Of a DNA stretch of 64,000 nt, positions 26,571 to 58,464 are shown in pieces. The notes below the pieces were generated by a model. The model did no database searches, was not told where the DNA came from, and saw only the letters and a list, made by a program, of their open reading frames with translations. The translations under genes were made by a program, and so were the position numbers. Source of the DNA: a virus. Position 1 is the first letter of the stretch; every line of letters starts with the position of its first letter. The DNA lies in IMG/VR virus record IMGVR_UViG_3300017971_000292. One strand, given 5' to 3'.

Positions 26571-27773
26571 ATGGCAGATAACATACCAGCATCCAATGAC
26601 GGCACTGCGGACACCACCCCGCCAGTGATCACATCTCACGAACCCCCGGCGTTGCCGAGCGCGAAGGACGCCCTGGGCCTTGACTCTAACCCTGCTTCGG
26701 AGGCGGGTAAGATTTTGGCCGCCCAGCGCAAGAAGATCAATCTGGGCAGCCCGGAACCGGAACCGGAACCTGAGGCGAAACCTGAGGCGAAACCTGAGGC
26801 GAAACCTGAGGCGAAACCTGAGGCGAAACCTGAGGCGAAACCTGAGGCGAAACCTGAGGCTCCCGCAGACCCCCCGAAGTTTAAGGTCGGTGACAAGGAG
26901 TACACCGAGGAGGAGCTGAAGGAACTGCTCAAGAAGCCCGAGGCTCCTGCAGCCCCGGCTGCTCCGGCTGCTCCGGCTGCTCCGCCGGAAGACCCGAATG
27001 CCCCGAAGCCTCCAACTGATGAGGAGATCGCGGCAGCGCGTGAGGCCTACCACGGCAAGCTTGTGACCCAGCTGTCACCACATTCTGTCGTCTCCGGTGA
27101 GGAGGTCGAAGCGATCCTTGGCGGGGGCGAGGACGCAGCCAAGACACTGGGGGACGTCCTCGCACGGACCCAGGCACACGCGCACATTGCTGTTCGTGAA
27201 GAGATTGCGGCGGAGCTGAACCCGATCCTGGACGCTATCCACCAGCAGGTGGCTCCGCTTCAGCAGAACTTCCAGATGACGAACGAGGCGATGGTCGAGT
27301 CGCTGTTTCGCCAGGCGAGGCCCGATCTGGACCCGCACCTCGACACAGCCCGGAAGTTCGCGACGGCATTGCGTGACCAGTATCCGGCTGAGGTCGCGCA
27401 GATGCAGCCGCAGCAATTCGTTGAGCAGGTCGCCGCGCAAACGGAGAACTACTTGCTCCAGCAGGTCAAGGCTCAGGCCCCTTGGTTTAACGGCACGCTC
27501 GCCCAGTGGGCAGAGGTTGTGGCCAAGATGAATCCTGAGGCCGCTACGCCGCCCGCTACGCCGCCGGCAGCGGAGACCCCTCCGGCTACACCCCCGGCCG
27601 CTCCCGCGCCCGCTACGCCGCCGCCAGCGGCTCCAGCGACGCCCCCGGCTGCGAAGCCGAGAGTACCTGCGGCGAATGCTCCCGCAGGCCACCCAAACCT
27701 GATGGCCACGCATCCGGATATGCGCGGACAAAAGGATTTTCATAAGTCGGTTGCTGCGAGTTTGCAGGAGTAA
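26571..27773 (+). CDS. Putative scaffolding protein with (PEAK)n and (PAA)n repeats (400 aa)
   Basis: Position immediately upstream of the capsid gene, helical A/E/Q-rich composition and tandem PEAKPEAK repeats. Confidence 0.6.
   Translation: MADNIPASNDGTADTTPPVITSHEPPALPSAKDALGLDSNPASEAGKILAAQRKKINLGSPEPEPEPEAKPEAKPEAKPEAKPEAKPEAKPEAKPEAPADPPKFKVGDKEYTEEELKELLKKPEAPAAPAAPAAPAAPPEDPNAPKPPTDEEIAAAREAYHGKLVTQLSPHSVVSGEEVEAILGGGEDAAKTLGDVLARTQAHAHIAVREEIAAELNPILDAIHQQVAPLQQNFQMTNEAMVESLFRQARPDLDPHLDTARKFATALRDQYPAEVAQMQPQQFVEQVAAQTENYLLQQVKAQAPWFNGTLAQWAEVVAKMNPEAATPPATPPAAETPPATPPAAPAPATPPPAAPATPPAAKPRVPAANAPAGHPNLMATHPDMRGQKDFHKSVAASLQE
26757..26864 (+). repeat. 12-bp tandem DNA repeat (CCTGAGGCGAAA)x7-8 encoding (PEAK)n, preceded by (CCGGAA)x3
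   Basis: Read directly inside the scaffold gene. Confidence 0.9.
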
Positions 27774-29134: not shown

Positions 29135-29410
29135 GTGAAGCCGAAACGGATCATCTCTCCGGCGGATGCTGCGGCTCCGCCGGAGAGTCTTAAGAAGGAG
29201 AGAGTCTGGACGTTCAAGAAGTGGCGGCCGGCTGATCCAGTTAGGTTCGAGGATGGCTCGACGTTTCGGTTTCCCTTGCAAAAGCTTAGGACAGGGGGGT
29301 ATGATAGTTCCAGTACTTTGGACGTGTCAGACCCCGAGTTGGCAGAGAAGTTAAAGGCAGTCATCGAGGCCGGAGACACGACACTGTGTGAAGTGGACTA
29401 CGGCGATTAG
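29135..29410 (+). CDS. Hypothetical protein (91 aa). It ends with a TAG stop.
   Basis: ORF track. Confidence 0.5.
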   Translation: MKPKRIISPADAAAPPESLKKERVWTFKKWRPADPVRFEDGSTFRFPLQKLRTGGYDSSSTLDVSDPELAEKLKAVIEAGDTTLCEVDYGD

Positions 29411-29860: not shown

Positions 29861-30520
29861 ATGAATAAGGGCGAGCTCATCCGATACCTCGAACGCTCCG
29901 TGAATCGGCCGGACATGGCCGATGCCTATTCCGACTGGATCAATCAGGGTCTTCGGAGCATCTACCAGGCCCATTCGTTCCTCTGTATGAAGGACCGTAT
30001 CACCGTCACGGTCGCTAACCAGACGACGTCAGCGGTGCTCCCAGCGAACTTCAAGGAGCTCCAGGCGGAGCGGTCGCCGATCTACATGCAGGGGCAGGAC
30101 GGTACCCTTCTGCCGTGTAAGATCACCCGGGAGGCACTCGAGCGAAGACTGCTCACGGCCAACCAAACGATTGTCGTGCCCACCAACCCGTCAACGCTGT
30201 TCAGGGATTTGCCGGTGTGGCTCGACTGGGACGCGAATGATGCGTACCTCTATTTGCTTTACCCCACGACGGGGGATACCGAGTTTGTCATCAAGTGCTT
30301 CAACTACCTGGCCGACTTGCAGAACGATGACGACGCGAACTACATCACGCGCACCTATGAAGAGATGGTGAAGGCGAAGGTCGCGGCGGTGGCCTACGAA
30401 GAGCTGCGTGATCCTGAGTGGAGGGACCAGGAGGAGCTCTATCATTTGCGGCTCAAGAAGGCGAAGGCCGACGACCTGTATCGCGCGCAGAAAGGTCGGA
30501 TCACCCAAATGGGACAATAA
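29861..30520 (+). CDS. Hypothetical virion-module protein (~219 aa), possible head-tail connector or tail tube protein
   Basis: ORF 29822..30520 trimmed to Met MNKGELIRYLE. The functional guess is by position only. Confidence 0.5.
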   Translation: MNKGELIRYLERSVNRPDMADAYSDWINQGLRSIYQAHSFLCMKDRITVTVANQTTSAVLPANFKELQAERSPIYMQGQDGTLLPCKITREALERRLLTANQTIVVPTNPSTLFRDLPVWLDWDANDAYLYLLYPTTGDTEFVIKCFNYLADLQNDDDANYITRTYEEMVKAKVAAVAYEELRDPEWRDQEELYHLRLKKAKADDLYRAQKGRITQMGQ

Positions 30521-30529
30521 GGAGGAAAT

Positions 30530-31516
30530 ATGGCTCTTTTAGGAGATGGATTCAACCCACAGGAACCAGCCGACAGCGACCTCGTGAAGTACGGCGCATC
30601 GTGGATGCGCGACATCAAGAACCGGCTCAAGGGCTGGGGGCAGGTCCTGTTCGATTTGAACACGGGGAGGCTGCGGGACAACGTCATCGCCTCGTCTAAG
30701 TTGAAGTCCCTTAGTCCAGATCCCGCTGGGGCGTACAACTGGGGGTCGGTCAATTCGAAGGGGCAGGTAACTGCCGGCCAGGACGTCGAGATCCCGAGTC
30801 GCGGGCGCGCGGTCAGTGAGATGTTCATCGGGTCAATCCTTGAAGAGTCGGCGTCGACTCCCGTGAGTCCTCTGGCTCCTGGGGCTGCGCTTCGGTTCAA
30901 CCCGGACACCAACGCGTTCTACACGGAGGTCAACGACGAGTGGATACTGACGAGCGCGGATACGGAGGGTGATGTTAACCACTGGAGTGCACGAAAGCTT
31001 TGGACCGTTCCGACTGGGGTTACCCAAGTGCGGGTAGTTGCCATCGGTGGTGGAGGGGGCGGCGAGCTTCTGGCTACCCCCTATGGTGGTGCAGGAGGCA
31101 CTTGGGCGATGGTCAACTTTATCGTCGAGCCCCAGCAGCAATGGGAGCTCTGGATCGGGTCCGGGGGCGAGGGAGGCGCGACCAATGACGGTCACGACGG
31201 GACGCTTACACGCTTCTATCTCGATGCCACACGTTTCGTCAAGTGCAAGGGCGGGAACGGCGCGAAGAGCGGGGCCGGCGGCACCGTCCCGTTCCCGATG
31301 AGCAATTTCGGCACGGGCCACACGACGCAGTATATTGGAATTCAATCCTATGGGGAGCCCGGCGGGCAGCCGAATGGGGGAGCCTGCGGCAACGGCTGTG
31401 TCGGTGGATTCAGCAACAATTACGTCGGTAAGAATTACGGTGCTGGTGGTGCCGGGGATGCTGTGCAAGGTCAAGCCGGCGGTCCTGGCGTCATCATCCT
31501 CGACTACATCTACTAA
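30530..31516 (+). CDS. Glycine-rich putative tail-fibre / receptor-binding protein (328 aa)
   Basis: AAGGAGGAAATATG RBS. The C-terminal half has GGGGGG, GGAGG, GSGGEGG and similar motifs. Confidence 0.6.
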   Translation: MALLGDGFNPQEPADSDLVKYGASWMRDIKNRLKGWGQVLFDLNTGRLRDNVIASSKLKSLSPDPAGAYNWGSVNSKGQVTAGQDVEIPSRGRAVSEMFIGSILEESASTPVSPLAPGAALRFNPDTNAFYTEVNDEWILTSADTEGDVNHWSARKLWTVPTGVTQVRVVAIGGGGGGELLATPYGGAGGTWAMVNFIVEPQQQWELWIGSGGEGGATNDGHDGTLTRFYLDATRFVKCKGGNGAKSGAGGTVPFPMSNFGTGHTTQYIGIQSYGEPGGQPNGGACGNGCVGGFSNNYVGKNYGAGGAGDAVQGQAGGPGVIILDYIY

Positions 31517-34164
31517 TGCGTCGCAAGAACGACATCAAGAAAGAGGTCAAGGGACCTCAAACTGGACTCGTAACACGCTTCCCCACTGACCTTACCGGTG
31601 AGGCAGCGGACCAGGCGCTGAGTGACGCGTCTAACGTGCGCGCCCAGGACGGCTCGCTGTCTAACGCCCCAGGCCACGAGCGTGTGGTCATCGATGGCGA
31701 CGGGCTGGGCTCAGAGCCTATTACGATCTGGCAGGCTAACATCCTGAGTACTTCCAGGGACGTTCGCCGGTCGGTGCTTGTTGGGACCGCACAGCGGGCA
31801 TACGAGCTCAAGCGGCGTGCAATCGAGATTGACTGCTCTGATACCTGCGCCCTCAAGTTCGCGTTCGTTGCCGATACTGGCAAGATTGGGGACGCCGCGT
31901 CGAACATCGCTCAGATGGTTCGCAAGTGGAACCCCGACGTGGTTCTGCACGGTGGGGATATCGTCTACTCCGATGGGTACGATAATGTCGGTGGAGCTAA
32001 CCCGAGTGTCGCCCCCTACGAGGATCTGCTCGCTCAGTATTACTGGTGGGCCATCGGAGGGTAGAACGGCTCTTACGGGCTGGGGCCGACCGACAACAAA
32101 CTCTTTCCGGCTCTTGGAAACCATGATCTGACGGACTGGCCGTACCAGCTGAACAACGCGTTCTTCAACCTCCCCGGTAACGGCCGGTCGTACGACTTTA
32201 AGGTGGGACCGGTCCACTTCGTAGTGCTGAACGCGAACGAGTCCGCGTACTCCGGGTACGACGGGTATGACCCAGTCGCGGTAGCGTCAGCACAGCAGAC
32301 GTGGGCGTCTGGCGTGATCGCGTTCAGTGATTGCCCGTGGGTTGTCGTGGTAGGCCACTCCCCTCCGTACACCAGCGATACCCTGCATACGCCGGGACTC
32401 GCGGACGTGCGGTGGTTGGATTCCGAGCCCATATCTCTTGGGCTGTTCGGCCATGCACACAACTACGAGCGGCTTGAGTCCAACGGGAAGACCTACATGG
32501 TGTGTGGGGCCAGCGGCCACTCCTTGCGTGGCTTCGGCACCCCGCTGGCGGAGAGTAAGTTCCGAGACTCCTCGCAGTACGGCGCGATTTTAGTGGAGGT
32601 CGACAAGGACCAGTTGGTCGCCAAGTACTACCACGTCGACGGGTCTCTGGTAGACTCCCACACCAGCGCGGCCCCGATCCGGGGACTCACGACTTGTTAC
32701 ACAACCAAGTCTGTGCGGACGTTGGAGGTTACTCCCTCTTTTGCGGAGTTGGAGATCGGGCAGTCGTACCAATACCGAGCTTACGCCACCTACGAGGACG
32801 GCACGCGGGCGGACGTGACGGACGACTCTACTGTCTGGGCAATCGAGGAGGGGACCATCGCTACAATGACCGCAGGTAAGGCCTACGGGGTCAACCTCGG
32901 CACTACCACGATCTCCGCCACGCACCGTGGGATCACCGCTGAGGCGGGGCTGTCGGTCAAGGCACAGTGTGTGGATATCCGCCGAGACTGGCTGTGGTGC
33001 GTGGAGCGGTCGGCTTCGATGGAGCAGACGGCGAACGGCAAGCGTATCCTGACCCACCTCGCAGAGGCGATGGTTGGCTGCACCCAGCGGATGCAGGATA
33101 CAGACACGTCAGGAGTGACGAGCTTTGCTGGTGATTACGATTTGCAGACGGCGGACGCCTACATCAACCACCCGCTCGACAGCGACAAGTCCCAGACAGT
33201 TCGGGAGTTCGAGTCGCTTCGCGGAACAGACGATTCTGACATCTCTGGTGGACTTGACCTTTGCTACGAGCAGCTGCTTGACGCGGACGTCCACAACTCC
33301 GAGGACCGTGGAGTCGTGGTGCTGATCGTCGACGGACCGGCGCGGGTTACAGACCCGGGCGGTGATGGGACGATGGAGACGGCGATGGCGGCAGCCAAGG
33401 TCTCAGCCGACCGGATCAAGACGCTGCCAGGTGCGATTCTTGTCGTCATAGGGTACAATGTAGACACCACGTACACACAGCTTGTGACGGACCTCGCGAC
33501 TCCGGGGTACTACTTCGATGTCCGGGACATCGACGAACTGCGTAACACTGTGGAGCAGATGCCATCCATCATCTGTGAGTTCGGGGACAACCCCTACAAT
33601 TACTACTACGCGTGCGTCAGTCCTCAACTGGACTACACTGGCTTCATCAACTGGGATGTGACCAACGGCGTGGTTGACCTTTGCGGGGAGGGTACGAACG
33701 GCATCGAACTCTATAATCAGTTCCCGGGGAACGGGCTCTACATCGATATGGTTGGGACGAACTCGAATAACTCAATCGGGAACAAGCAGCGCGAGGGGCA
33801 CATGACGTCCAAAGTGTCGTACAATTTCGAGGCCGGCAAGCGGTACAAGTTCTCTATCGACGTCTCGGGCACGGGCCGCCAGGAGAACGAGTATCCGATG
33901 AGCATCCACTGCCTCATCGGGAGTTTACTCAACGTCAAGGCGACGAAGGGTCCGAAGTCTCAGGCGGACAACTTCAGTACGTTCTCGTGGGAGTTCGACG
34001 TGACCTCAACGGTGTCCGAGAGCATCCAGTTAATCATGGAACGCACGGGCCAGGATCCTGTGAGTGTGGTGGGCCTCTTTATCAAGGATGTTAAGCTTGA
34101 AAACCTCACGGACACCACGATAATGCTCCTCGACAGTTTCGACGGCGAAAACGCTTGTGTCTAA
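31516..34164 (+). CDS. Purple-acid-phosphatase-like metallophosphoesterase fused to Ig-like (Big_2-like) and vWA-like regions (~882 aa if read through). One in-frame TAG at 32062..32064 interrupts it.
   Basis: All five phosphoesterase motifs are present in order and in one frame: VADTG, GDIVY, [TAG], GNHD, VVVGHSPPY and GHAHNYER. The six-frame track splits it into 31516..32064 and 32203..34164. No other stop lies between 32065 and 34164. Confidence 0.6.
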
Positions 34165-34167
34165 CCT

Positions 34168-36423
34168 ATGCGCGACCAACTAACGATTGTTGTGACCAGC
34201 CACCAACGGGCTGATCGACTCACCAAATGTCTGGCCTCCATCCCTCAGGGATTTCCTGTTGTCGTCTCCGGCAGCGCGACTACTGATGCGGTAGCAAAGG
34301 TAGTCAAGGAATTCGGGCGGGCCACAGCCACTCTCCGGGCGCACGACCTCGGCGTGAACGAGACGTGGCTCCGTGGTGTGTATCTGGCGCGTACCCCGTA
34401 CGTACTGATCCTCCACGACGATGACTGGCTGTCGCCTAATTTCGGGGAGACCTACGACAACATCATCGCTCCGCAGCTGCTAAGTGGGACCGCCGGGTGG
34501 GTGCTTGGCGGCGCAGACGCCTATGATGACGACGGCAAGCTGAAGTTTCGGACGCGGGAGTTCGACCGCCAGACGGGCGTCATGGGGCCGGCTAAGCTCG
34601 CAGCCGCGCTCTACGTCCACAACCGACTTGCGATCTCCCCCGTCAACTGCATCTACGAGCGGGATCTGTGCGTCCGCACACTCAAGGATTTCGAGCGGCG
34701 TTTCAAGGGCCCGGGCTGCGCAACAAGCCCTACGATGCTCGCCGGGAATGATCTCCTGCTTATGCTTCGGCACGTTGAGACGTTCGGGTCTCTTCTATAC
34801 GTGAACGAGCCGTTGGCCTGTTATGGCATTCACGAGGGCTCCACTACGTGGTCGCACATCCAGAGTCGGAAGCAGCAGAAGCTTGCGGATGCGTACAACT
34901 ACACGCGGCGCGTAACCCTCCGGGACGAGGTCTGTGAGCTGACAGACACTGCGCCGACGCCGTTCATCCACATCGCACACTCACTACCACCGAAGCTGGA
35001 TTCCAGGCACTCCATCGCTCGAGGATCGTGGCGGTTCCTGCTGGAGCGCCCCGAGGTCATGTCGCACCAGTACGCCCCCGATATGCTCGCGCGTCACTCG
35101 GGATCTCAGTTAGGGGACGAGCGCCCTGTGCCGTTCCTGCGAGATCTGCTGGATGCCACATACGACATTGCGCGTCCGGAGGATTGGCTGATCTACGCCA
35201 ACGCGGACATCGGCTTCTCCCGCGTGAGCGCACAGCGGTTTCTCGATGCGTTGTCGCATCACCCGGAGGTCTGCTACTTTTACCGTCGGCAGATCCCAGT
35301 CATGAGTGACCAAGTGGAGTGGATCTCGCCGGAGATGGGGGCGCACGACGGGGGCGTGGACGCGTTCGCGATCAAGGCATCGATTTGGCCGGAGTTCCGG
35401 CGGTATCTTCCGGACTTTGTGATTGGGAGGGAGGGCTGGGATTTCTGTGTGAGACCTTTGATGAACTACTGGTGTCGCGCGAAAGACCAGCCTGCTCCTG
35501 ACGTTGATAATACAATTTGGCATCATCCACATGTGTCGCATTGGCTGAAGTCCACGGAGCGCACGCGCAACCCGGGCAACCGCCACAACCTGCGAACGCT
35601 GGACAACTGGGTGAAGACCCACCCGGTGATCGCCGGCAACGGCGGTATGGTCATACCGGCCCAGGGCATCGAGTTCCAGGACGCCCCGCGATTCGTGCCG
35701 GGCGAGACCATTACCACTTCCGGCGAGGACGGTCTGATCCTTAGCGTCTGCATCACCTGTATGGATCGTGCGGATGTCTTGGAGACGACGCTGCCGGCCA
35801 ACCTGGAGTCTGCCGCAGGGCTGCCGGTAGAGTTCGTGGTCATGGACTACTCCAGTCACGCGGAGGACGCTGTCAAGGACCTTGTGAAGCGGATGCGTGA
35901 GAAGTACCCGGATGCCCGGCTCCGCGCGTATCGCCACGAAGGCGAGCAGTATTGGCAGCCGAGCCATGCCAAGAACATGGCCCACAAACATGCACGCGGC
36001 CCGGTGGTATGCAACCTCGATGCGGACACATTCCTTGATGAGCACGCCCAAGCATTCCTCATCCGCAACGTGCGGAAGAACGCGTTTGTCGCCCCCCAGA
36101 TCTCCGACATGATGGGGACCATCGCCTTCCACAAAGACGACTTCGGCTACCTGGGGGGATACGACGAGCGGTTCAACAAGGGGTACGGTCACGAAGACTC
36201 CGACCTTGTGGCCCGGGCGCTGCGGTCAGAGATGTGTCAGGTGGAGCTTCCGCCAACCATGCGGAGCCGGATCCACCACGACTCCAGCAAGCGCGTGAGT
36301 CGCACCCGCATCAAGGACTACCGTAAGGCGTACAAGGCCCATCGGGACCTATTCCTGAAGGGGGACGTGATCTGCGCCAACGCTGGCCAGGGCTGGGGGC
36401 GTGGGGAAGTTGTTGAGCTTTGA
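34168..36423 (+). CDS. Two-domain family-2 glycosyltransferase (751 aa)
   Basis: N-terminal domain IVVTSHQRADRL...ILHDDDW. C-terminal domain SVCITCMDRADVLETTL...CNLDADTF...GGYDERFNKGYGHEDSDL (GT-A DxD plus a galactosyltransferase-like motif). Confidence 0.7.
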   Translation: MRDQLTIVVTSHQRADRLTKCLASIPQGFPVVVSGSATTDAVAKVVKEFGRATATLRAHDLGVNETWLRGVYLARTPYVLILHDDDWLSPNFGETYDNIIAPQLLSGTAGWVLGGADAYDDDGKLKFRTREFDRQTGVMGPAKLAAALYVHNRLAISPVNCIYERDLCVRTLKDFERRFKGPGCATSPTMLAGNDLLLMLRHVETFGSLLYVNEPLACYGIHEGSTTWSHIQSRKQQKLADAYNYTRRVTLRDEVCELTDTAPTPFIHIAHSLPPKLDSRHSIARGSWRFLLERPEVMSHQYAPDMLARHSGSQLGDERPVPFLRDLLDATYDIARPEDWLIYANADIGFSRVSAQRFLDALSHHPEVCYFYRRQIPVMSDQVEWISPEMGAHDGGVDAFAIKASIWPEFRRYLPDFVIGREGWDFCVRPLMNYWCRAKDQPAPDVDNTIWHHPHVSHWLKSTERTRNPGNRHNLRTLDNWVKTHPVIAGNGGMVIPAQGIEFQDAPRFVPGETITTSGEDGLILSVCITCMDRADVLETTLPANLESAAGLPVEFVVMDYSSHAEDAVKDLVKRMREKYPDARLRAYRHEGEQYWQPSHAKNMAHKHARGPVVCNLDADTFLDEHAQAFLIRNVRKNAFVAPQISDMMGTIAFHKDDFGYLGGYDERFNKGYGHEDSDLVARALRSEMCQVELPPTMRSRIHHDSSKRVSRTRIKDYRKAYKAHRDLFLKGDVICANAGQGWGRGEVVEL

Positions 36424-40974: not shown

Positions 40975-42300
40975 ATGCCGACCTATTACGGATTAGCGCA
41001 ACAGGGCTTTTACGAGCCGTGGAAGATTCTTGGCGATAACCTCGCGAAGTACCAATCGCGTAAACTGGAGAAGCAGCGCATGGCGCAGCAACAGAGCCAG
41101 TTTGACGCTTCGCATGCACTGCGCCAGGCCGCTGAGGGGCGTGCCCAGGCCGCTGAGGGACGCGCGCAAAGCCTCTTTGACGTCCAGCTTCCGCCCATGC
41201 AGATCGCATCCCAGGAAGCGCAGCGTGCCCAGAAGGTGCGGGAACTCGGCCGACAGACGGCACTGAGCCCACAGCTCCAGCTGCCTTTAGCGCAATTGCC
41301 GCCGCAGGACCGGGAGGCAGTCTCCTCGATGTACAAACGGGCGATGCCTGACATCACGGCCCAGGAAATCGCTGGCGTCCAGCAACAGCAGGTTGCGGCT
41401 CCCGGGCTCGCGCCCGCTCCCGAAGGGATGCGTTACCTGAAGGTCGATATAGACCCAACGACTGGCCAGCCGACGGCGGCGACAGCAGCCCCTCGGGCAG
41501 TTGGCCCAGTCACCCCGCAGGTGCAGTTGGTGAATAACCCGCAGACGGGTGAGCCCATCGGTTCGATCATCAACATGACTGACCCGCAGACGGGTGAGAC
41601 CAAGCAGCAGTGGGTCGCTGACGCGGGCGACCAGGCCAAGGCGTTGACCGAGGCGCAGACGAATTCGACAATGCACTCCGGCCGGATGCTCTTCAATAAC
41701 GCGCTGTACGACATGGTCGGCGGTGACGCTGAAATGTCCAGTCGCGCCGCGACAGTCCTCAAGTTCATGCCCGAGAACTTCCGGTCGCAGGATCTGAAGG
41801 GCTCGATGGGTGCAATGGGCGGATTCATCACCAGCGTCCTGCGTCGGGAATCCGGTGCTGCGATCTCCAAAGATGAGTTCAAGCGGTACGCGCGGGAGTT
41901 CTTCCCGATGCCTGGGGATGGCCAAGACGTTGTCCTGCAAAAGCGGTACGCGCGTGCGTTGGCTACCGATCTGATGATCTCTTCAGCTGGTCCTGGTGCG
42001 CAGGGCGCACGGGATAATGCGGCTGCACGGCTGCAGGCGTTTGCGCAAGCCCAGGGCACACAAGTTCCTCCTGAAGTCCTCCAGGGGATCACAGGTGCGC
42101 TGAAGCAAGACGCCCCGGCAAGTGCAGTTAATGCGGTGGCTCAAGTATTGAACGAAGCGGCAAGCACACCTCGCCGGGTAACGTCGGCGGAGGAGGTTAT
42201 GGCGATGCCCTTGGGAGCCATCGGAATCGATGACAAAGGCAACCAGTTTATCATCCGAGAAATGAATGGTAAGCGGACGCCCGTACCCTTGGCCAGATAA
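40975..42300 (+). CDS. Hypothetical coiled-coil protein (~441 aa)
   Basis: TAAGGAGGAAGAGATG RBS (ORF track 40924..42300). It is Q/A-rich. It directly precedes the 2060-aa protein (TAATG overlap). Confidence 0.6.
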   Translation: MPTYYGLAQQGFYEPWKILGDNLAKYQSRKLEKQRMAQQQSQFDASHALRQAAEGRAQAAEGRAQSLFDVQLPPMQIASQEAQRAQKVRELGRQTALSPQLQLPLAQLPPQDREAVSSMYKRAMPDITAQEIAGVQQQQVAAPGLAPAPEGMRYLKVDIDPTTGQPTAATAAPRAVGPVTPQVQLVNNPQTGEPIGSIINMTDPQTGETKQQWVADAGDQAKALTEAQTNSTMHSGRMLFNNALYDMVGGDAEMSSRAATVLKFMPENFRSQDLKGSMGAMGGFITSVLRRESGAAISKDEFKRYAREFFPMPGDGQDVVLQKRYARALATDLMISSAGPGAQGARDNAAARLQAFAQAQGTQVPPEVLQGITGALKQDAPASAVNAVAQVLNEAASTPRRVTSAEEVMAMPLGAIGIDDKGNQFIIREMNGKRTPVPLAR

Positions 42301-45300
42301 TGCCCTTCGACGTCACCAAATCTTTTCCATCGATGACGCAGGGCCCCGATACGAAGTCGGGGTTCGACGTCACGTCCATGCCCAACTTCGGGTCGCAACC
42401 CTCAGGCAACTTCGACGTCACCAAGATGTATCAGCAGGGACAGCCTGTGGGACAACCTGGCGTTGACCGACCCTTGACTCAGGACGAGTTTAAGCAGCAA
42501 TGGCGGCGCGAGCAGGAGCGCGGGGTGCTCGACAAGACGATTGGTGCAGGCGTATCGTTCGCTACGGAAGGCGTTCCAGCGTTTGTCAAGTACGGGTGGG
42601 AGCAGGGCGTCGGCGCGATCAAGGAGATTCCCAAGCTGGCCACCCAGCCGTGGAAGGTGGGGTCAACTGCCGGGGAAGCCGCGTTGCGCGGGACATTCGA
42701 TTTTCTGAACATCGGTCGGATGCCCGTCGCCTGGGCCCGCGATAAGATGATCAAGGCGACCACCAACCTGGGGCCTGAGGGTGACATGCTGGTCGACTAC
42801 AACCGGTATCTGGAGAATTTCAAGACCATGAGGGTCCGGGAGCAGTTCGAGCGTGGCGGAGCCACAATGCTCGGATCGGTCCCACAGGCGCTCGGTGCGC
42901 AAGTTGGGATGGCTCTCCCTGAGACCAAGCTCCCTGAGACCATCGCTCCGGAGCAGCACGCCGCCGAGCTGGCCTCCATCGTCCTCGACCCCTCTCTGTT
43001 AGTGGGCGGAGTGGGCAAGGCTGCTGGTGCGTCCGCCAAGGCCTCCTCCCTGGCCGCCAGGACGGCCGCCAGGAGCCCGAGACTGGCGAGGGGTATGGAG
43101 ATCGCCTCCGGCTTCAAAGGCGCGTTAGGCGAGGACGTGGGCGCAGGGATCGCTAAGATGGGGCGTGGTGTTGAGCATGTCGGGAAGACCAAAGCAGCCC
43201 AGTTCGTCCAAAAAGCCACGCCAGCAGTAGTGGGTATGTCAGCGGTTGGTGCCGCAATGGGTGCTCCGATGGCCATCGCCGCCCCTATGGCTATGGCTTC
43301 AGCAGGACTCGCGTTCGCGAAACGCGGCGGGCAGATGCTTTCTGGACTCGGAGACGCCGTAAGCGCCTGGAGCCGGACAGAGCCCGGCCGTATCGCCCTC
43401 AACAGACTTCAGCAGGTGGCCCTCGACGAGGCTGCCCCGGAATGGTTGCGTCGGACGGCCCGGAGGGGCTCCAAAATGGGCCTGGGGCGCGGCCTGGAGG
43501 TCGCTCGTAACCTCAAACAGGCTGCCAAGGCCGGTACTGCAGTTGCAGCCATTCCCGCGCTTACAGGCACCTCTACGGCTGAGGAGGCCGGACAGATGAT
43601 GGGTATGGGTGCAGGATTTGGTGCACTCGGGCACGTTGTTATGAGCCCGGTGATGAGGGCTGGGACTCGCAGGGCGATGGAGGACGTTGATATTGCTTCC
43701 TGGCACAGCGGCCTGGACGAGGGCTCTAAGCACATCGTGAGCAAGCTCGACCGTGAGGGGATGCTCAAGGCGGCGACGCTCGAGGCGTTCATCAACTCTA
43801 TGCGCCCAACTGAAGAGGGCCCGGGAGTGCTCATCCGGTACGCTGACGACGATACCTGGGCCGCTATTACTGATCAGGAAGTGGGCCCGGCTGGCGTACA
43901 GGCCGTCGAGACTGTACTGGGCGGGGAGCGCCCGGCAGTCACGATCAACGTCGACCGGATGGCGGACACCACGCTCGGCCACGAAGTGTTCCATGCGCTG
44001 TCCCGCGATCCGCGCATCGTGGACCAGTCGAAGTTACGCAGCATGCTCTTTGACCAAATCCACCCGGAGACCGGGGAGGTTATGAGTACCGGGCTATTCG
44101 ACTCGAATACCCTGGCTGCCATGCGCGCCGATTACCTTGGAAAGTTCGACGCTGCGTCGGAGGCTGGACGCAAGATGCACCGAATGGCTGGCGAGCAGCC
44201 GACGAAGTTTGACAACCTCATACGTGAAGAGGTTACTGCCGAGTTGTTTGGTGCGATGCTTGGTAAGGCCGACAGTGGTGTCTTCCGCAATCTTGACTCG
44301 CTCACGCAGCGCAAGATCGACGCATGGCTGACGACAGGTGAGCCCCTCACTAAGCTGCAGGAGATGAAGAAGGCCATCGCCACGAAGCTTGGCCTGTACA
44401 AGACGCAAGAGGGGAACATCGGGTCCCACATCTACCCAGGTCTGGAGACCTCTCCGAAGATCACCGCTGAGCTCCGTAACATCATGCGGGCGCGCCTTGA
44501 CGTTTTCGGGGAGGGGGAAGCCACCGGTCCCCGTGTCCGAATCGGTGACGAGGGCAAGGAGGTCCATGCTGAGTTCGATGCGCGCGAGGTCGCCACTGAT
44601 CCCCGCCTGGCGGAGATTTTCAAGGATGCTGACGTTTGGCAGCGCAACGAGGACGGTACGGTCAAGATCGACGCGTACAATCGGCCGATGGTCCGCACCG
44701 CAAAACAGATGAAGCGAGTGGAGGCCCAGCGCGCTGAGCTGATGACCAAGACGCTCGAACAGGTTGACGTCGAAGAGCCAGGTGCGATGAAGTTGATCAT
44801 CTCCGACGACGGGACGCCCCGTTGGAGTGGACGCTATTTCACGGACCCGCAGATCGAGGCGCTGACAGCCGCTATGCCCGGTTGGATGTGGCCTCCGTCG
44901 ATGACTGATAAACTGCGGATGATCAACGAGGCGGCCAAGGTAGGCATGCCGCTGATGATGAACTACAACCCGGCGCTTCTCCGTAACAAGTACGCGAGTC
45001 GCCTGGGCATGACGCTGCGCATGGGCGTACCGTTGAAGATGGATATCACCAAGGCTGGTAACTTCGTGGTCACGACTGTTGACCTCGTCCACCTCCAAGA
45101 CAAGCTCGGGCGGTGGTGGGACGCTGACCAGAAGCTGAAGGACAAGGGGCAGCCGCCGAAGTACTTTAGGACCTTCGAGTCGTTAGAGGAGATTGACCAA
45201 CTGATCAAGACTTACCTGACGAACCACCAGGAGGGCCGCCCAGGGCAGACGGGGTTGCACGCGGACCCGAAGGTGGCGATGGAGCGAAAGCACATTCTGA

Positions 45301-48300
45301 ACGACTTGTTCAACATCCGCACAGATAAAACCGATCCACTGAACCCCCGAAGACTTTCCAGTGCGCGGAAGGAGAAGGACACGCTGATCCGCTCCCGCCG
45401 GTTTGACCGCATCAACAGCATTGAGCCCGCGAAGGGCGACCCTATGCCGCTCTCCTACGAGTCGCTGAAGATGAACTACCAGCCTGGTGCTGAAGATTTG
45501 GCCGTGAGTGCGGCCAAAGAAGCTCCCGAGCCCTCTCAGGCTCGAGGGCTTGCAGAGGACGCGGGAGTCTCGCCAAAGCCACCCGGTGAGACTCCCGGCA
45601 CCTCCTCTCCGTTCGGTGAGGCCGCTGGTCAGAGAAGCACGAAGGGCTACTACAAAGGCTTTACCGACTCGGAGAAATTCGGGATTCCTGATGAGTGGAA
45701 AGAGCCCGGGCAGATGTTTATGAAGTTCCAACCGGGTGAGAAACCCGGACTCCCGAAGCAAGAAATTTCCTCGAAGGCTACGAGCCTCGAACAGGTCCCG
45801 GCCAAGGCTTTCTACGGCACCGTGAAGTTCCCGGAGGGCGCGCGCAACGCCGATATAGGGGCGGGCAAATCCGAGCTATTCACTGAGTACCTCAAGGAGC
45901 GTGGCGTCGAGAACCTCCGCTACGACCGCTTCTGGCAGAAGCCGGAGGAGGTCGCTGCGTTCGCCAAGGCGATCAAGGATCCGACTGAGACGGCGACCGT
46001 CAACAACGTCCTGAACGTGATCAAAGAGCCGGCTCCGCGAGACTATGTCATTCGCCAGGCTGCGGCGGCTATCAAGGCTGACGGCACGGCCTACTTCAAG
46101 ATTTACGAGGGGGACGGGACTGGGAAGGGTAAGGAGACCGCCAAGGGCTACCAGAACAACCGGAAGGCCACCGATTATGTAAAGGAGATTGAACAACACT
46201 TCTCCGAAGTCACCCGCAAGGGCGATGTGCTTATCGCAACGAAGCCGAAGGCCCAGGGGATTATCGGTCAAGACATCATGTTCCAGCCCGGCGCGGAGCC
46301 GGAGAAGATTACGCACGCTGCGTTACGCGTCCCCGATAACGAGGGCGGATTCAACATCTACGTCGGGCCCCAGCACTTCGTGGCTATCGCCAAGGCGAGC
46401 CGTGACATGAAGCTGACCTCCGATTTCATTATGGACAAGATGGGCGAGATCGACGGATTCGTGACCGACAAGGGTCGGTTCGTCAGCCGCCAGGAAGCTT
46501 ACCGGCTTCACTACGGTGAGGAGAAGGCCGGGGTGCTCGATTCAGGTGACGTACCCGCCCTGAAGGAACGGGCGAAAACGGAGACCGTGCGAGACGTGCT
46601 GGTCGGTGACGTTCCGTCCAACCCCTACATCGTACAACGCGAGGCACGCAATACGGTGATGAACAAGAAGCGTCCGAGTACCTTCTTGCCAGATGGGGGC
46701 GGGAACGCGGTAGTTGGCGGCGACGTGAGATACTCTCCTGGATCAGTAGACGCTTGGGCCAAACGCCTCCGCAAGGCCAAAGACGCGTTGCGCGTGTACG
46801 GCAAAGACGGTGTCGAGCAGATCATCAAAGCAGCTGAGGCTACCCGCAAGGTTATGGCCCCCTTCTCCAAGTTCCTCGGGGAAGAGCTTAAAGGCAGCCC
46901 GTTGCGTGAGAACGCAGACCCGCTGTTCACCACCACTTTCGACCTGTCTACGGTTTGCCCGCAGCAGGATCTCTACGTCGCTGCAGTCGGCCACGTAGAA
47001 GCTAAGATGGGCCGCATCCTCGCCCCGCACGAGCGTTACGCCGTCGGCCTGGTCCTCCAGGACATGGGGCAGGACACCGCTTGCTGGTACTGCTACGGGC
47101 AGATCAAGCGGGACATCCGTGAGAAGGGGATGGGTGACGCTGTTGACTTCAACAACAAACTCGTGACGCTCGCGCGCAAGAAGAAGGGAAAGCTGACGAC
47201 CGAAGATGTGCAGTCTCTGACGCACCGCCCAATTGAGTTCCCTATCGACCCCAAGAAGAAGGTTCCCGAGGACGCCAAGGTTGCTGCGCTACCCGGCCGC
47301 AAGTTTACCCGCTTAGCCGCGTTCTTCCTGAATAACCCGAAGAGCCTCACTAAGATGGATCCGCTGCGCGTGCGCGACATCATCCGGGGCAAGGCTACAG
47401 CCACTCCGAAAGAGGCCGCGTTCATCAAGACTGTAGACCGCTACACGGCTTCTGCATTCAAGGAGAACAAGCCCAAGGGGTGGAGCCCCTATACGGATCA
47501 GATCGCGACGATGCGGCAGGAGGACGTAGACCTCTTCAACTCGATGGCCGGCATGCGGATGAACAGTCAGACGGACTTCCGGCCCTGGCACGTTCTGGAT
47601 CTCATGCAGGGGATGGCCGACGCACGGGCCCGTGGCCTGGCCTGGCACGTCTATACGAAGACCCCCGACTTCCTCAACGTCTTTGGCGACACGGGCATCA
47701 AGTTCAACATGTCCGTCGAGTACGCCCACGACGCGAGTGGTAACCCGGTGCCCCGGTCGGCCGAGGGCGGCGGAGCCGGCTACAAGTTCAACGACATGGA
47801 GGGGATGCCCGATGCTGACGCTCTCCGGCTCCGCGAAGAGCACGCCGAGAACGCCGGGACCATGCTGATGGCTTTCAACCCGAAAGAGGTTGAGCTCGGG
47901 ATGGCCGACCCCAACGTCGACATGATCATCCCCTACCACAAAGGTGGGGTGCCACAGAAGATCGAAGCGCAGGTCAAGGGCGTGGATATGTCGGCTATGC
48001 AGCACGAACATTTCCCTGATGGTTGGGGGAAACCCCGGGACGTTTACATGGGGCGCGGCAAGACCAAGAAGCTGCAGGCGATGGATGTCAAGCTCTCCGA
48101 CGGCTCGACAGTCGAGATCGTGAAGGGCCGCCCGATCACCCGCAGGGAGCACAAGAACAGCAAGAAACGCTATCTGGAGATCTGCGAGAAGGCGGGCATC
48201 ACACCCAAGTTCGAGAAGTGGAAGAGCCACCCCGGCTACATGAAGCTTATCCGAGACGTGGCCCGAGAGCCCGGAAAGCAGTCCCCGGTGGACCCCAACA

Positions 48301-48482
48301 AGATCAATTGGAAGGCCGCCAATGAAATCATCGAGCGGTGGGGCCGTGAAGGCGGTGACAAGACGAAGCTGCCCGCCGGCATGAAGCGGACCTTCGACAA
48401 AGTAGTCGACAGTGGGCTCTTCGAGGAGAAGGTCCAACAGATCGAAGCTCGGGCGGCGGTTGAAGCTGGACGGGCGAAGTAG
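42300..48482 (+). CDS. Giant multidomain protein (2060 aa). Candidate internal or ejected virion protein or tape-measure-like protein with enzymatic domains.
   Basis: N-terminal Gly/Ala-rich segment, an HExxH motif (TTLGHEVFHAL), a GxGxG-like motif (NADIGAGKSE) and several basic regions. Ends with TAG. Confidence 0.75.
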   Translation: MPFDVTKSFPSMTQGPDTKSGFDVTSMPNFGSQPSGNFDVTKMYQQGQPVGQPGVDRPLTQDEFKQQWRREQERGVLDKTIGAGVSFATEGVPAFVKYGWEQGVGAIKEIPKLATQPWKVGSTAGEAALRGTFDFLNIGRMPVAWARDKMIKATTNLGPEGDMLVDYNRYLENFKTMRVREQFERGGATMLGSVPQALGAQVGMALPETKLPETIAPEQHAAELASIVLDPSLLVGGVGKAAGASAKASSLAARTAARSPRLARGMEIASGFKGALGEDVGAGIAKMGRGVEHVGKTKAAQFVQKATPAVVGMSAVGAAMGAPMAIAAPMAMASAGLAFAKRGGQMLSGLGDAVSAWSRTEPGRIALNRLQQVALDEAAPEWLRRTARRGSKMGLGRGLEVARNLKQAAKAGTAVAAIPALTGTSTAEEAGQMMGMGAGFGALGHVVMSPVMRAGTRRAMEDVDIASWHSGLDEGSKHIVSKLDREGMLKAATLEAFINSMRPTEEGPGVLIRYADDDTWAAITDQEVGPAGVQAVETVLGGERPAVTINVDRMADTTLGHEVFHALSRDPRIVDQSKLRSMLFDQIHPETGEVMSTGLFDSNTLAAMRADYLGKFDAASEAGRKMHRMAGEQPTKFDNLIREEVTAELFGAMLGKADSGVFRNLDSLTQRKIDAWLTTGEPLTKLQEMKKAIATKLGLYKTQEGNIGSHIYPGLETSPKITAELRNIMRARLDVFGEGEATGPRVRIGDEGKEVHAEFDAREVATDPRLAEIFKDADVWQRNEDGTVKIDAYNRPMVRTAKQMKRVEAQRAELMTKTLEQVDVEEPGAMKLIISDDGTPRWSGRYFTDPQIEALTAAMPGWMWPPSMTDKLRMINEAAKVGMPLMMNYNPALLRNKYASRLGMTLRMGVPLKMDITKAGNFVVTTVDLVHLQDKLGRWWDADQKLKDKGQPPKYFRTFESLEEIDQLIKTYLTNHQEGRPGQTGLHADPKVAMERKHILNDLFNIRTDKTDPLNPRRLSSARKEKDTLIRSRRFDRINSIEPAKGDPMPLSYESLKMNYQPGAEDLAVSAAKEAPEPSQARGLAEDAGVSPKPPGETPGTSSPFGEAAGQRSTKGYYKGFTDSEKFGIPDEWKEPGQMFMKFQPGEKPGLPKQEISSKATSLEQVPAKAFYGTVKFPEGARNADIGAGKSELFTEYLKERGVENLRYDRFWQKPEEVAAFAKAIKDPTETATVNNVLNVIKEPAPRDYVIRQAAAAIKADGTAYFKIYEGDGTGKGKETAKGYQNNRKATDYVKEIEQHFSEVTRKGDVLIATKPKAQGIIGQDIMFQPGAEPEKITHAALRVPDNEGGFNIYVGPQHFVAIAKASRDMKLTSDFIMDKMGEIDGFVTDKGRFVSRQEAYRLHYGEEKAGVLDSGDVPALKERAKTETVRDVLVGDVPSNPYIVQREARNTVMNKKRPSTFLPDGGGNAVVGGDVRYSPGSVDAWAKRLRKAKDALRVYGKDGVEQIIKAAEATRKVMAPFSKFLGEELKGSPLRENADPLFTTTFDLSTVCPQQDLYVAAVGHVEAKMGRILAPHERYAVGLVLQDMGQDTACWYCYGQIKRDIREKGMGDAVDFNNKLVTLARKKKGKLTTEDVQSLTHRPIEFPIDPKKKVPEDAKVAALPGRKFTRLAAFFLNNPKSLTKMDPLRVRDIIRGKATATPKEAAFIKTVDRYTASAFKENKPKGWSPYTDQIATMRQEDVDLFNSMAGMRMNSQTDFRPWHVLDLMQGMADARARGLAWHVYTKTPDFLNVFGDTGIKFNMSVEYAHDASGNPVPRSAEGGGAGYKFNDMEGMPDADALRLREEHAENAGTMLMAFNPKEVELGMADPNVDMIIPYHKGGVPQKIEAQVKGVDMSAMQHEHFPDGWGKPRDVYMGRGKTKKLQAMDVKLSDGSTVEIVKGRPITRREHKNSKKRYLEICEKAGITPKFEKWKSHPGYMKLIRDVAREPGKQSPVDPNKINWKAANEIIERWGREGGDKTKLPAGMKRTFDKVVDSGLFEEKVQQIEARAAVEAGRAK

Positions 48483-48833: not shown

Positions 48834-49354
48834 TCGCTCGTTTGATGATCGACACCCCGAAGATCACAGTTGGAATTGACCCAGGCATGTCCGGAGCCGT
48901 AGCCGTGCTCGGCAAGGGCAACCTACAGATTTTCCGCGACTTTAAGGCTCCCCTCGATATCGTCCACGGCGTTCAGGCCGCTGCCCAGGTCTGCGCGGAG
49001 CCGGATATGATCGTCATAGAGGACGTCCACGCGATGCCCGGCCAGGGGGTTGTCTCCATGTTCAATTTCGGCCACGCTACGGGGGTAGCAAGAGGGGCCA
49101 TCCTGGCTTCTTTTCCAGGACAGCCCCTTGTTAAGGTCGCTCCGCTCAAGTGGCAGAACGTGCTGCGAGTGATTGGTGAATGGTACAAGCCTCGAGAGTT
49201 CGACTCACGGGCTATAGCTCTTCAGTTGTTCCCATCCCCAGCCCACGCGGCTTTGTTTCGCCGGAAGAAGGATCACAACTCGGCTGATGCGGCTCTGATG
49301 GCTCTGTGGGCTCTTCATCAACTGGAGGCTCCTCCAACGGGTCGTCCTGACTGA
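48830..49354 (+). CDS. RuvC-like Holliday-junction resolvase
   Basis: GIDPGMSGAVAVL ... IVIEDVHAM ... DHNSADAALMALWA places catalytic D/E/D/D in a RuvC-like arrangement. Confidence 0.65.
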   Translation: MIARLMIDTPKITVGIDPGMSGAVAVLGKGNLQIFRDFKAPLDIVHGVQAAAQVCAEPDMIVIEDVHAMPGQGVVSMFNFGHATGVARGAILASFPGQPLVKVAPLKWQNVLRVIGEWYKPREFDSRAIALQLFPSPAHAALFRRKKDHNSADAALMALWALHQLEAPPTGRPD

Positions 49355-55104: not shown

Positions 55105-57359
55105 TTGGGCTCGGGAAGTTGTCGCTTGGAGGCAAGGAATTCGAGGTTGATTTTAAAGGTTCTGAAGCTTGCATCGAGTTGTTCGATGCCTGTGTCATTG
55201 GGGGTCCGCGCAAGGTGCTGAAGCGCCTTGTAGGTTCGTTCGCTTGTCCACTCTTTGAGGACATGCTGGTAGCCGTCGAGCGCGTCCAGTTCGTGGAGTA
55301 GCTCAGTCGGGCTCATCACTTGAATAGGCTCCGGGAGGTTGCTGGGCTTGGCATCCGCATACATCTCCTTGGCAAACAGCGCGAGAATCTCACTCATACT
55401 GGCCGACTGGTGCTGCTTCTCACTGAAGCGAACAATGCGCGAATCGTAGTAGCACTTCACGCCCATGCGGTTGTTCGCCTGGACGGCCGAGTCATCAAAA
55501 ACATTCAAAAGCCACCACAAGAACGCGCCACGCTCTGCAGCTAACGTCTCCTCGCAGAACTTGTTCGACGGCCACTTCTCGCGGCGCTTCTCGATCTGAA
55601 AGAACATCATCTTGTCAGCAAGGCCCTCGCTAAGCATGGGCAACATGCCGAGAGACTCGGGGTCGCTGTTCAGTGAACCAATGAGGCGACCGATCCAAAC
55701 GATCTTGACAGGCTTGGAGAACTTCGCATGGCTGATCTGCCCGGGCTGAGCGATGAGGTTTTTAAGCCGTACATTGAACGCGCTCTTCGCCCCCCACGTT
55801 GCCGGGCTCACCTGATCGTCGAGCACCAACGTCGGGGCCTCCAACACGTAATCGCTAAAACTGCTTGACCCGAGTAGGTAGGCATAGGGGTTCGACCACA
55901 GGCCGCCAAAGAGCGGAATGAAGAAGTGGTTAATGGCCAGGCTCTTCCCTGATTCGGTTGGGCCGCACAGAAAGATTGCTTGACCCTGGACCTGTTCGTG
56001 AGTCACCAGACCAATGTGGAATCGTCTTGTCCACGCCAGGAGATGGTCGAGGCCCTTGCCGAAAATCTGCAGGAGCTCCCAGGTGAATGGGAAGTCCTCG
56101 GGTGTCCCAGTCAACCCCTTGCCGGGGGTCGGGAACAGGAGGTCACAAGTGTTTAGGAACCGCAGCTTGCCCTGTTGGACGAGCCCCGGTGGGTAGTTGA
56201 TGAACGGCGCGGCACCGATGATCGCCTGGTGGTTCTGGATGTATCCGAGCACCTGATTCATCTCACTCTCAATCTGCCCCTTACCCTTCCTCGACGATAC
56301 TCCCTCGAGGGCCAGCTGTAACTTGATATCCTCCTTCTTCCGCTTCGTCCACCCCTGGCCTTCGATATTGACCCAAAAGTGGTCCGAGTCGTAGTAGAGC
56401 CCTTCCGCCGCACGCGCCAATCGGTCTTGCGTGTTCCGCTTAATGAAATCTCGGTCGAAGATCTGATCCCACTTCATGAACGGTCCATGCTTCTCTTTAC
56501 CAGTGAAGCACAGCATCCCGTCGGGCTTGACCTGACACCCGTTCTGGTTGTCTGCCGTCTCGTCCCAGAAACGCACGCCCGTTGCGTCTTCAACAAACTC
56601 CCCTTGCCAGCGGTTGGGCCAGCGCCGGTTGACCTCTTCCCCGATGACTTCAAGGGGGATCGTCACGTCCTCGTATAGCGACTTATCGGTAGACGCTTCC
56701 ATGTAGGATCCCTTGACGATCTCCCCGTCGAGGGGCTTTCCGGTCACTTCGTACCAATCGACTCCATTCGACCAGCGCATCTTGGGGTCGTAGGTGCCCT
56801 TGTCGAGCCCGGGCAACCACTTCTCCAGTTGGAGGCGGCTGCCGAGCCGGCGGAGGAAGACCGCAGCGAACTGGGTATTTCGGAACAGCACCTCTTCAGG
56901 AAACACCCATACGAGTCGCACGTTGCCGCTCAGGCTCTGCTCAAAGAAGGTGGGGTGGATTCCCTCAGGCATCTCCTTAAGCCGCTCCTGGAAGGCCTCC
57001 CATGAATACCTGGCGTCGAAGTCTGCTGCGAACGCCCGGCCGCCGTATGCAGGATTCTCGTCAGAGATAATCTGGCTGGGGGTCACTCCCCGGAAAGTAC
57101 AGTAGATGTTCCAGTCAAGTTTTGGTTGGCGCAGATTGGATTTGCGCGTCTCCTTAGTGAGTCCGCGAAGCCTCTCTACCGCTCCGGGCTCGGGCTCCCA
57201 CTCCCAAGGATAACCTTCAGTGGGTTCAGTATCCGTAAGATTTCGGGTCACAAACAGTTTTAGCATATCGGCACAAGCGGGGAAAGGGGAGGAACCGGAA
57301 CCTACCCGGCCCCTCCCCGGGGTTAGGTTATTCCGAAGCAGCGGCGGGCGCTCCGCCAC
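55101..57359 (-). CDS. DNA primase/helicase (P4/D5-like NTPase C-terminal domain; 752 aa; start may be the internal Met ~57263)
   Basis: Walker A FLCGPTESGKS, Walker B PTLVLDD and a long N-terminal primase-like region. Confidence 0.7.
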   Translation of the reverse strand: MAERPPLLRNNLTPGRGRVGSGSSPFPACADMLKLFVTRNLTDTEPTEGYPWEWEPEPGAVERLRGLTKETRKSNLRQPKLDWNIYCTFRGVTPSQIISDENPAYGGRAFAADFDARYSWEAFQERLKEMPEGIHPTFFEQSLSGNVRLVWVFPEEVLFRNTQFAAVFLRRLGSRLQLEKWLPGLDKGTYDPKMRWSNGVDWYEVTGKPLDGEIVKGSYMEASTDKSLYEDVTIPLEVIGEEVNRRWPNRWQGEFVEDATGVRFWDETADNQNGCQVKPDGMLCFTGKEKHGPFMKWDQIFDRDFIKRNTQDRLARAAEGLYYDSDHFWVNIEGQGWTKRKKEDIKLQLALEGVSSRKGKGQIESEMNQVLGYIQNHQAIIGAAPFINYPPGLVQQGKLRFLNTCDLLFPTPGKGLTGTPEDFPFTWELLQIFGKGLDHLLAWTRRFHIGLVTHEQVQGQAIFLCGPTESGKSLAINHFFIPLFGGLWSNPYAYLLGSSSFSDYVLEAPTLVLDDQVSPATWGAKSAFNVRLKNLIAQPGQISHAKFSKPVKIVWIGRLIGSLNSDPESLGMLPMLSEGLADKMMFFQIEKRREKWPSNKFCEETLAAERGAFLWWLLNVFDDSAVQANNRMGVKCYYDSRIVRFSEKQHQSASMSEILALFAKEMYADAKPSNLPEPIQVMSPTELLHELDALDGYQHVLKEWTSERTYKALQHLARTPNDTGIEQLDASFRTFKINLEFLASKRQLPEPK

Positions 57360-58422
57360 TGATCATCGGGTGGATGTCGTCGCAATAATCCCGGGCATCG
57401 GGGCCGATGGGCTCGCGGCGGCATAGCGCATCAGGCGACCAGACCTGGAAGTTCCCTCGCGATTTGCGCGTGAGCTTCCACGTCCAGAAGTACTTCCAGA
57501 GGATCGTCTTCTTGACGATCACCCCGTGTTCGTCCTTCACCGGGTTGTTCTCCTCGTCGAGCACGGGCTCCGTGAGGAGATTCCGGGTCGCTGAGATGAT
57601 CGCCTGGGAGAAGTCCTTATAGGCCCCACCGTTGGCCCAATACTTCGCCGGGGCGTAGAGCTTACCGTCGAGCTCCGTGTCAAAGAACGAGCTGTCGGCG
57701 AACTTCTCGGGGAGGTTGTCTGGCTTCTCCACCAGCAGATTATGGATAGCCCCAGCACGCCATTTGCCGGGCCCGTAGCCGACGGTCCCACCGACTTCCA
57801 TGAGCGCCGCCTTCGAGTAGACCATCTCCGGCATTGCCCCGTCATCCTGCTCCTCCTGAGTCAGGGTCTCACGGTAGAACTTGACGAGGTGCAGCGGGAT
57901 CACCCGCAACGTCAGGAACGCGTTCTTGTCGGACAGGTCCTGCGGAGGGTACGCGAGCACATCCCCACCCAGGATCACCGACCCGACCGAGAACTCCGCG
58001 CTCAGCTTCCCGGAACCTTGGACAACCTTCAGCTCGGGGAACTTGATGTCTTCAAGGTCGAAGTCTCCGACGATAGCCCCGCCGGAAGACGTGTAGAGTG
58101 CCTGGCCAAGCGGCGAGGACAGGGAGGAAACCCCCCGGGTGGCGACCGCTGTGGTCTTCTCCGGCTCTTCCTCGACCGACGCACGAACCGGCGGAGCCGG
58201 TGCTTGTGGCTTCATAGGAGGCGGCGGAGCCGGTTGGGCCGGGTCGGGCTGACCCGCGTCAATGACCGTCTGGCGAGCCATCGCGTCGGTCTCTTCAGCG
58301 GTCATAGGACGCGCCTGCGCGATCTGCTCAGCCACGCCGGGCTGCTTAGAGGTGGTCGGTTGGGATTCCTCCGACGTAGGGGTCGGAGCCGCTTTTGGTG
58401 CTACTTTTCTACGTATTGCCAT
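57328..58422 (-). CDS. Hypothetical protein with Pro-rich N-terminus (364 aa)
   Basis: ORF track. Its position between primase and nuclease suggests a replication or recombination accessory protein (an SSB or annealing protein is possible but unproven). Confidence 0.55.
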   Translation of the reverse strand: MAIRRKVAPKAAPTPTSEESQPTTSKQPGVAEQIAQARPMTAEETDAMARQTVIDAGQPDPAQPAPPPPMKPQAPAPPVRASVEEEPEKTTAVATRGVSSLSSPLGQALYTSSGGAIVGDFDLEDIKFPELKVVQGSGKLSAEFSVGSVILGGDVLAYPPQDLSDKNAFLTLRVIPLHLVKFYRETLTQEEQDDGAMPEMVYSKAALMEVGGTVGYGPGKWRAGAIHNLLVEKPDNLPEKFADSSFFDTELDGKLYAPAKYWANGGAYKDFSQAIISATRNLLTEPVLDEENNPVKDEHGVIVKKTILWKYFWTWKLTRKSRGNFQVWSPDALCRREPIGPDARDYCDDIHPMISGGAPAAASE

Positions 58423-58429
58423 AACTCAG

Positions 58430-58464
58430 TTTTTGGTTTTTGGTTTTTGGTTTTTGGTTTTTGG
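58430..58464. repeat. Tandem heptamer (TTTTTGG)x5, which reads (CCAAAAA)x5 on the coding strand of the 5' leader of gene 57328..58422
   Basis: Read directly. It is located 8 nt upstream of the ATG. Confidence 0.9.

Follow-up and report, generated by a model that had tools for sequence, protein, structure and literature searches.

Does an isolated in-frame TAG in a late gene of an uncultivated SU10-like phage mean that the codon is read as an amino acid, or has a single base changed in one genome or one assembly? The 64,000-nt stretch of DNA analysed here (the window) raises this question at 31516..34164, where an 882-codon frame is open throughout except for a TAG at 32062-32064. Translation of the frame revealed no frameshift and no second stop, confirming the earlier note, which had reported an otherwise open frame on the basis of the sequence. 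We consider it highly probable (about 0.93) that the TAG is a private, unprogrammed single-base change from TAC, a figure that takes a nonsense allele and a sequencing error together. The gene, its stop codon and the two open reading frames (ORFs) on either side of it are as follows.

31516..34164, plus strand: the disrupted gene, 882 codons from ATG at 31516 to TAA at 34162-34164; intact in sibling genomes as P0021, about 96 kDa
32062..32064, plus strand: in-frame TAG, codon 183; siblings have TAC (Tyr), with base 32064 alone differing (G here, C in siblings)
31516..32064, plus strand: truncated ORF of 182 aa, about 19.7 kDa, with the N-terminal region and motifs I-II only; P0020 in the source annotation
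32203..34164, plus strand: downstream ORF of 653 aa beginning at the first in-frame start after the TAG (GTG), without motifs I-III; P0002 in the source annotation

A phosphoesterase fusion in the tail module

The joined translation scored 51.5 bits against the Pfam Metallophos profile (PF00149), well above the curated cut-off of 21.5, and the match spans codon 183. All five metal-ligand motifs lie in a single frame in the correct order, show no variation among 11 aligned homologues, and place the TAG between motif II (GDIVY) and motif III (GNHD). The score and the motif set indicate membership of the metallophosphoesterases, with a likeness to purple acid phosphatases (PAPs), and the earlier description of the gene as a PAP-like phosphoesterase fusion in the virion module was correct in each of these respects. 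Its domains and motifs, all on the plus strand, are listed here.

Residues 1 to ~110, plus strand: conserved N-terminal region, highly conserved and not confidently modelled
31852..32466, plus strand, residues 113-317: Metallophos (PF00149), interrupted by the TAG
31870-31890, plus strand: motif I, D120-x-G122
31951-31968, plus strand: motif II, GDIVY (G147-D-I-V-Y151)
32116-32127, plus strand: motif III, GNHD (G201-N-H-D204)
32347-32370, plus strand: motif IV, GH281
32449-32469, plus strand: motif V, GHAH (G312-H-A-H315)
32713..32925, plus strand, residues 400-470: Big_2 bacterial Ig-like domain (Pfam)
32998..33336, plus strand, residues 495-607: VWA_2 von Willebrand factor A domain (Pfam)
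3′ end of the 31516..34164 gene, plus strand: C-terminal beta-rich domain

Structure prediction was consistent with these assignments. An AlphaFold2 model, made of a homologue (P0001, 79% identical) and not of the window protein itself, had a mean pLDDT of 72, with the catalytic, Ig-like and VWA domains confidently modelled and residues 1-110 not. Searched with Foldseek, this model found mammalian and plant purple acid phosphatases as its top PDB matches (E about 1e-13, target TM 0.66), and VWA domains were also among the best PDB matches. Purple acid phosphatases were likewise returned by sequence search (E about 2e-3). Considered as a possible shared anchor domain, the N-terminal 112 residues had no match among the other proteins of the window.

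The gene sits in a neighbourhood of SU10 type, in which genes for the portal and the major capsid protein are followed, in order, by those for the adaptor, a Gly_rich_2 protein, the target protein, a GT2 fusion and a phrog_3287 protein.

29861-30520: adaptor
30530-31516: Gly_rich_2 protein with tail-fibre-like PHROG matches, just before the target gene
34168-36423, plus strand: 751-aa GT2-family glycosyltransferase fusion, GT2 domains at residues ~525-700
Beyond the GT2 fusion: phrog_3287 virion structural protein

For phage SU10 itself, gp11 has been described as the adaptor and gp12 and gp13 as long-tail-fibre proteins (PMC9509320). Should the numbering of the genes reflect their order, the target gene may by analogy occupy a tail-fibre-like slot. 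Two further features of the module deserve mention in their own right. The GT2 fusion lies directly downstream of the target gene, inside the tail/virion module, and keeps this position in the 79% relative (L001). A 2,060-aa ORF at 42300-48482 on the plus strand, which ends in TAG, closes the structural module; it had no Pfam match at E<=0.001, with only a faint T4_Y16D hit on record, and may serve as an ejection protein or as an internal component of the virion.

The codon in sibling assemblies and the wider family

The site is covered by five public assemblies that represent essentially this phage, matching the window at 99.96-100% identity over 3-17 kb, and every one of them reads TAC.

JGI 3300017963: TAC
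ENA ERZ27256798: TAC, in 66,843 bp, essentially the whole genome
ENA ERZ27256783: TAC
Logan SRR6963591: TAC, in a 3.3-kb contig seen in 2 samples and covering the first 240 codons of the gene

Over the 2,649-nt gene the window and its siblings differ by a single mismatch, G versus C at 32064, and this is also the sole mismatch over 17,397 nt (L004), 10,895 nt (L005) and 3,329 nt (L104) of alignment. The intact 882-aa sibling protein is the window translation with Tyr at 183, and one 90% cluster groups it with the 653-aa and 182-aa fragments. That cluster lists only one contig carrying the fragments, so the TAG allele is confined to a single contig. Exact-pattern scans of the metagenome_contigs and viral_contigs collections, with TA[N] at the site, returned neither allele. 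The absence of any further change in the gene relative to the siblings implies that the stop is either extremely recent or not real.

Elsewhere the window departs from its siblings at two further sites, both private to it: at intergenic position 15693 it has C where two sibling assemblies have A, and near positions 87-115 it has an extra GCAACC/TTGCGG hexamer unit (4.8 copies, with one fewer in L010).

The sibling contigs are circular permutations of the window, position 1 of the ENA contig corresponding to window position 26768. One Logan contig (L010) leaves the right end of the window, crosses a missing 2,781 bp (L010 4391-7171) and re-enters at window position 1, which indicates a complete genome of about 66.8 kb. 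Two repeats were observed in the course of these comparisons. The first, at 26767-26860 on the plus strand, is a perfect tandem repeat of a 12-nt unit (AACCTGAGGCGA x 7.8) within a 400-aa gene (26571-27773) between the portal and major capsid genes. It coincides exactly with places where sibling contigs begin, end or have end artefacts (ENA ends at 26768 and 26835, L003 end at 26752), and so it breaks assemblies. A perfect (GTTTTTG) x 5.1 repeat at 58429-58464 is intergenic between the minus-strand genes 57328-58422 and 58469-59755, and two Logan contigs (L009, L010) end inside it.

More distant relatives told the same story about codon 183. Protein search recovered homologues that are full-length and without interruption, 882-890 aa long and 79%, 58% and about 38% identical; each has Tyr at the aligned column, within the motif IGG-Y-NG, and Tyr183 is invariant in the alignment of 11 homologues. 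The codon is TAC in the two loci at 79% amino acid identity (L001 and L002). Across 96 related loci, these being public metagenome and viral contigs whose alignment covers residue 183, the site encodes Tyr in 95 (TAT in 48, TAC in 47) and is a gap in one, with no stop in any. Together with the five siblings, these loci answer the earlier call to look for a sense codon in homologous phages, and they establish TAC as the ancestral codon and the substitution as private. Asterisks in a few tblastn high-scoring pairs were considered as internal stops and rejected, since they proved to be the ends of stand-alone enzymes near residue 387-408 or stops upstream of the start.

The gene has also been constrained. 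Compared with L001, dN/dS was 0.077 over codons 1-182 and 0.094 over codons 184-800, at a dS of about 1.6 that is near saturation. These values show that, until very recently, purifying selection acted strongly on the gene both before and after the TAG.

The source annotation lists the 182-aa and 653-aa products as separate entries, as would be expected if there were two natural genes, the second with its own start. The earlier note had anticipated this alternative, to be recognised by homologues that end at the TAG; when checked, none ended there, and the phage-type relatives are all single ORFs across the site. A split at this point would, moreover, cut the catalytic domain between motifs II and III, leaving neither fragment with a complete active site. 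The GTG at 32203 lies past motif III, and inspection by eye of the 20 nt upstream of it revealed no plausible Shine-Dalgarno sequence. We regard two natural genes as scarcely credible.

The family as a whole is small. Among 5.8 billion clusters, protein search gave 19 matches; neither megablast nor tblastn found a homologue in 50,697 deposited phage genomes, the target protein had no PHROG match, and the IMG/VR related-locus search with the single protein as query gave none. Its members (P0001, P0003-P0012; loci L011-L017, L091-L101) share an unusual fusion of PAP-like, Big_2, VWA and C-terminal beta domains, encoded directly after the adaptor and tail-fibre-like genes in SU10-like uncultivated phages.

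Genetic code, tRNAs and downstream RNA structure

The genetic code of the phage was assessed from 60 gene calls carried over from sibling contigs, whose terminators are TAA in 32, TGA in 22 and TAG in six. TAG ends genes at 12514, 29408 and 48480, as had been noted before, and also at 49212, 52091 and 62798 on the minus strand; the genes ending at 29408 and 48480 belong to the structural module. We thus agree with the earlier exclusion of a global reassignment of TAG. The target gene is the only one of the 60 with an internal stop, and the GC content of the window is 59.4%.

No recoding machinery is present in the genome. ARAGORN found no tRNA in the 64,000-nt window, in ten sibling and relative loci (L001-L010) or in the 2,781 bp that lie outside the window, and Rfam gave no match at gathering score or at E<=1 in the window and the missing segment. 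The tRNA-like element that the earlier note placed elsewhere in the window was thus not borne out, and its proposed search of the complete phage genome for a tRNA with a CUA anticodon yielded no tRNA of any kind. The complete genome is accordingly indicated to be without tRNA genes. The 95 nt beginning just before the TAG fold with a minimum free energy of -29.7, against -27.6 +/- 3.2 for shuffled sequences (z = -0.68), and the same folded sequence is equally present in siblings that have no stop.

These observations bear on the proposal that the TAG is a programmed, site-specific signal, whether reassigned in the manner of genetic code 15, decoded as in pyrrolysine systems or leaky like the stop of Q-beta, that regulates a late gene. 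A lone in-frame TAG in a late, virion-module gene with open frame on both sides is what such a signal might look like. The stop, however, is not conserved even in siblings 99.99% identical to the window, and it is absent from the 95 aligned relatives; among 60 genes it is the sole in-frame stop, the genome has 59% GC and ends 10% of its genes with TAG, there is no suppressor tRNA, and the downstream RNA structure is not significant. Neither a conserved stop nor a stimulatory downstream structure was found, and every feature of code 15 that was examined (many in-frame TAGs, avoidance of TAG, a suppressor tRNA) was absent. The pyrrolysine-type version was rejected, given that tRNAs are lacking and that every aligned relative has Tyr at the site. 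Programmed readthrough or reassignment is, in our judgement, extremely improbable.

Rescue in trans is a different matter, as an amber suppressor supplied by the host or a co-infecting element, such as a tRNA-Tyr with a CUA anticodon, would allow a real TAG to yield some full-length protein. The remainder of the gene is perfectly intact, and the lost codon is one for Tyr, so that a Tyr-inserting suppressor would restore the wild-type protein. Yet Tyr accounts for two of the eight sense codons that are one substitution from TAG, and its identity is thus expected by chance; a strong suppressor would extend the six other TAG-terminated phage genes, and no tRNA was encoded in the window, the 2.8 kb outside it or the sibling loci. 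We consider such rescue very unlikely, and slightly less likely still that the TAG is live in nature and maintained by a Tyr-inserting suppressor tRNA in the host population. In that last case the phage would be a naturally occurring conditional-lethal amber mutant, able to make its tail-module enzyme only in hosts that carry a suppressor. The suppressor or readthrough scenario favoured for testing in the earlier note therefore finds no support, given TAC in the siblings, Tyr in 95 relatives and a genome without tRNAs, and the evidence supports the other options it had raised, a very recent nonsense mutation or an assembly error.

Nonsense allele, consensus error and known systems

What distinguishes the window is exactly one base, which separates its TAG from a sense codon in genomes that are otherwise identical, as a private single-nucleotide variant would. 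Whether the G at 32064 was present in the sampled phage is a separate matter. A real and very recent amber allele has, in our estimate, an even chance. We infer that the base is more probably an allele than a base-call or consensus error, and a real variant is plausible because the two other private, neutral-looking differences make this contig a slightly distinct genotype. Against this, a nonsense mutation in a strongly selected gene (dN/dS about 0.09) should rarely be the majority allele of a sample, and the TAG occurs in no second assembly.

The converse explanation is that TAC is the true codon in the sampled phage too, the G being a miscall or a minor-variant path chosen by the assembler. 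The base is the sole difference from five assemblies otherwise identical in the gene, it is seen in exactly one contig, and the strong conservation of the gene disfavours a knock-out consensus base a priori. Position 32064 is also preceded by a G-rich run (GGAGGGTA[G]); Illumina substitution errors are reported to be more frequent in such a context. Consensus substitutions are nevertheless rare in a contig assembling the whole ~67-kb genome, and the differences at 15693 and in hexamer copy number suggest real strain-level divergence. We place a sequencing or assembly error at somewhat below even odds.

Were the nonsense allele real, the phage population from which this single contig derives would have undergone a C-to-G transversion at 32064 that replaced the conserved Tyr183 codon, TAC, with TAG. 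Under the standard code, translation would halt at codon 183 and release a 19.7-kDa fragment with motifs I-II, and at best weak re-initiation at GTG 32203 would give a fragment without motifs I-III. With either product the phosphoesterase would be inactivated, and the truncated products are probably non-functional.

The main value of this result is for annotation, as the deposited calls split one 882-aa protein into fragments of 182 and 653 aa, and both fragment ORFs are best annotated as one disrupted gene or flagged as a possible sequencing error. It has no bearing on open questions of genetic-code flexibility. More generally, when a late phage gene shows a lone in-frame TAG, near-identical assemblies should be consulted before any proposal of recoding.

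Compared with known systems, the catalytic domain resembles the PAPs and calcineurin-like metallophosphoesterases (PF00149; PDB 2bq8, 1ute, 4dhl) in its set of DxG, GDxxY, GNH(D/E), GH and GHxH motifs. Unlike them, it is fused to a phage-specific N-terminal region and to Big_2, VWA and C-terminal beta domains, and it is encoded within the tail module of an SU10-like podophage, where its phosphoesterase role, judged from sequence, is putative.

Recoded phages that read TAG as Gln (genetic code 15) include crAss-like and Lak phages (Borges et al., bioRxiv 10.1101/2021.08.26.457843; Peters et al., PMC9523058). Low GC characterizes such phages, together with suppressor tRNAs, a depletion of TAG or TGA as terminators, and numerous recoded stops among the structural and lysis genes (bioRxiv 10.1101/2021.08.26.457843; PMC9523058). 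The gene studied here shares with them an in-frame TAG in a late, structural-module gene. Theirs, however, are many and spread across late genes, whereas here one of 60 genes is affected; their genomes are low in GC and depleted of TAG, whereas this one has 59% GC and ends six genes with TAG; and they usually have a suppressor tRNA, whereas none was found here and the TAG is absent from the siblings.

The am mutants of T4 and lambda, classical amber (UAG) nonsense mutants of established genetics, are a better match. There too one base makes a sense codon TAG in an otherwise intact gene, the code is standard, and the product is truncated unless the host has a suppressor tRNA. The difference is that the TAG in the window comes from a metagenome-assembled contig and not from a selected laboratory mutant, and is thus a candidate allele. 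Among known phenomena, this TAG is closest to an ordinary amber nonsense mutation, or to a base-call error mimicking such a mutation, and the finding is an ordinary one.
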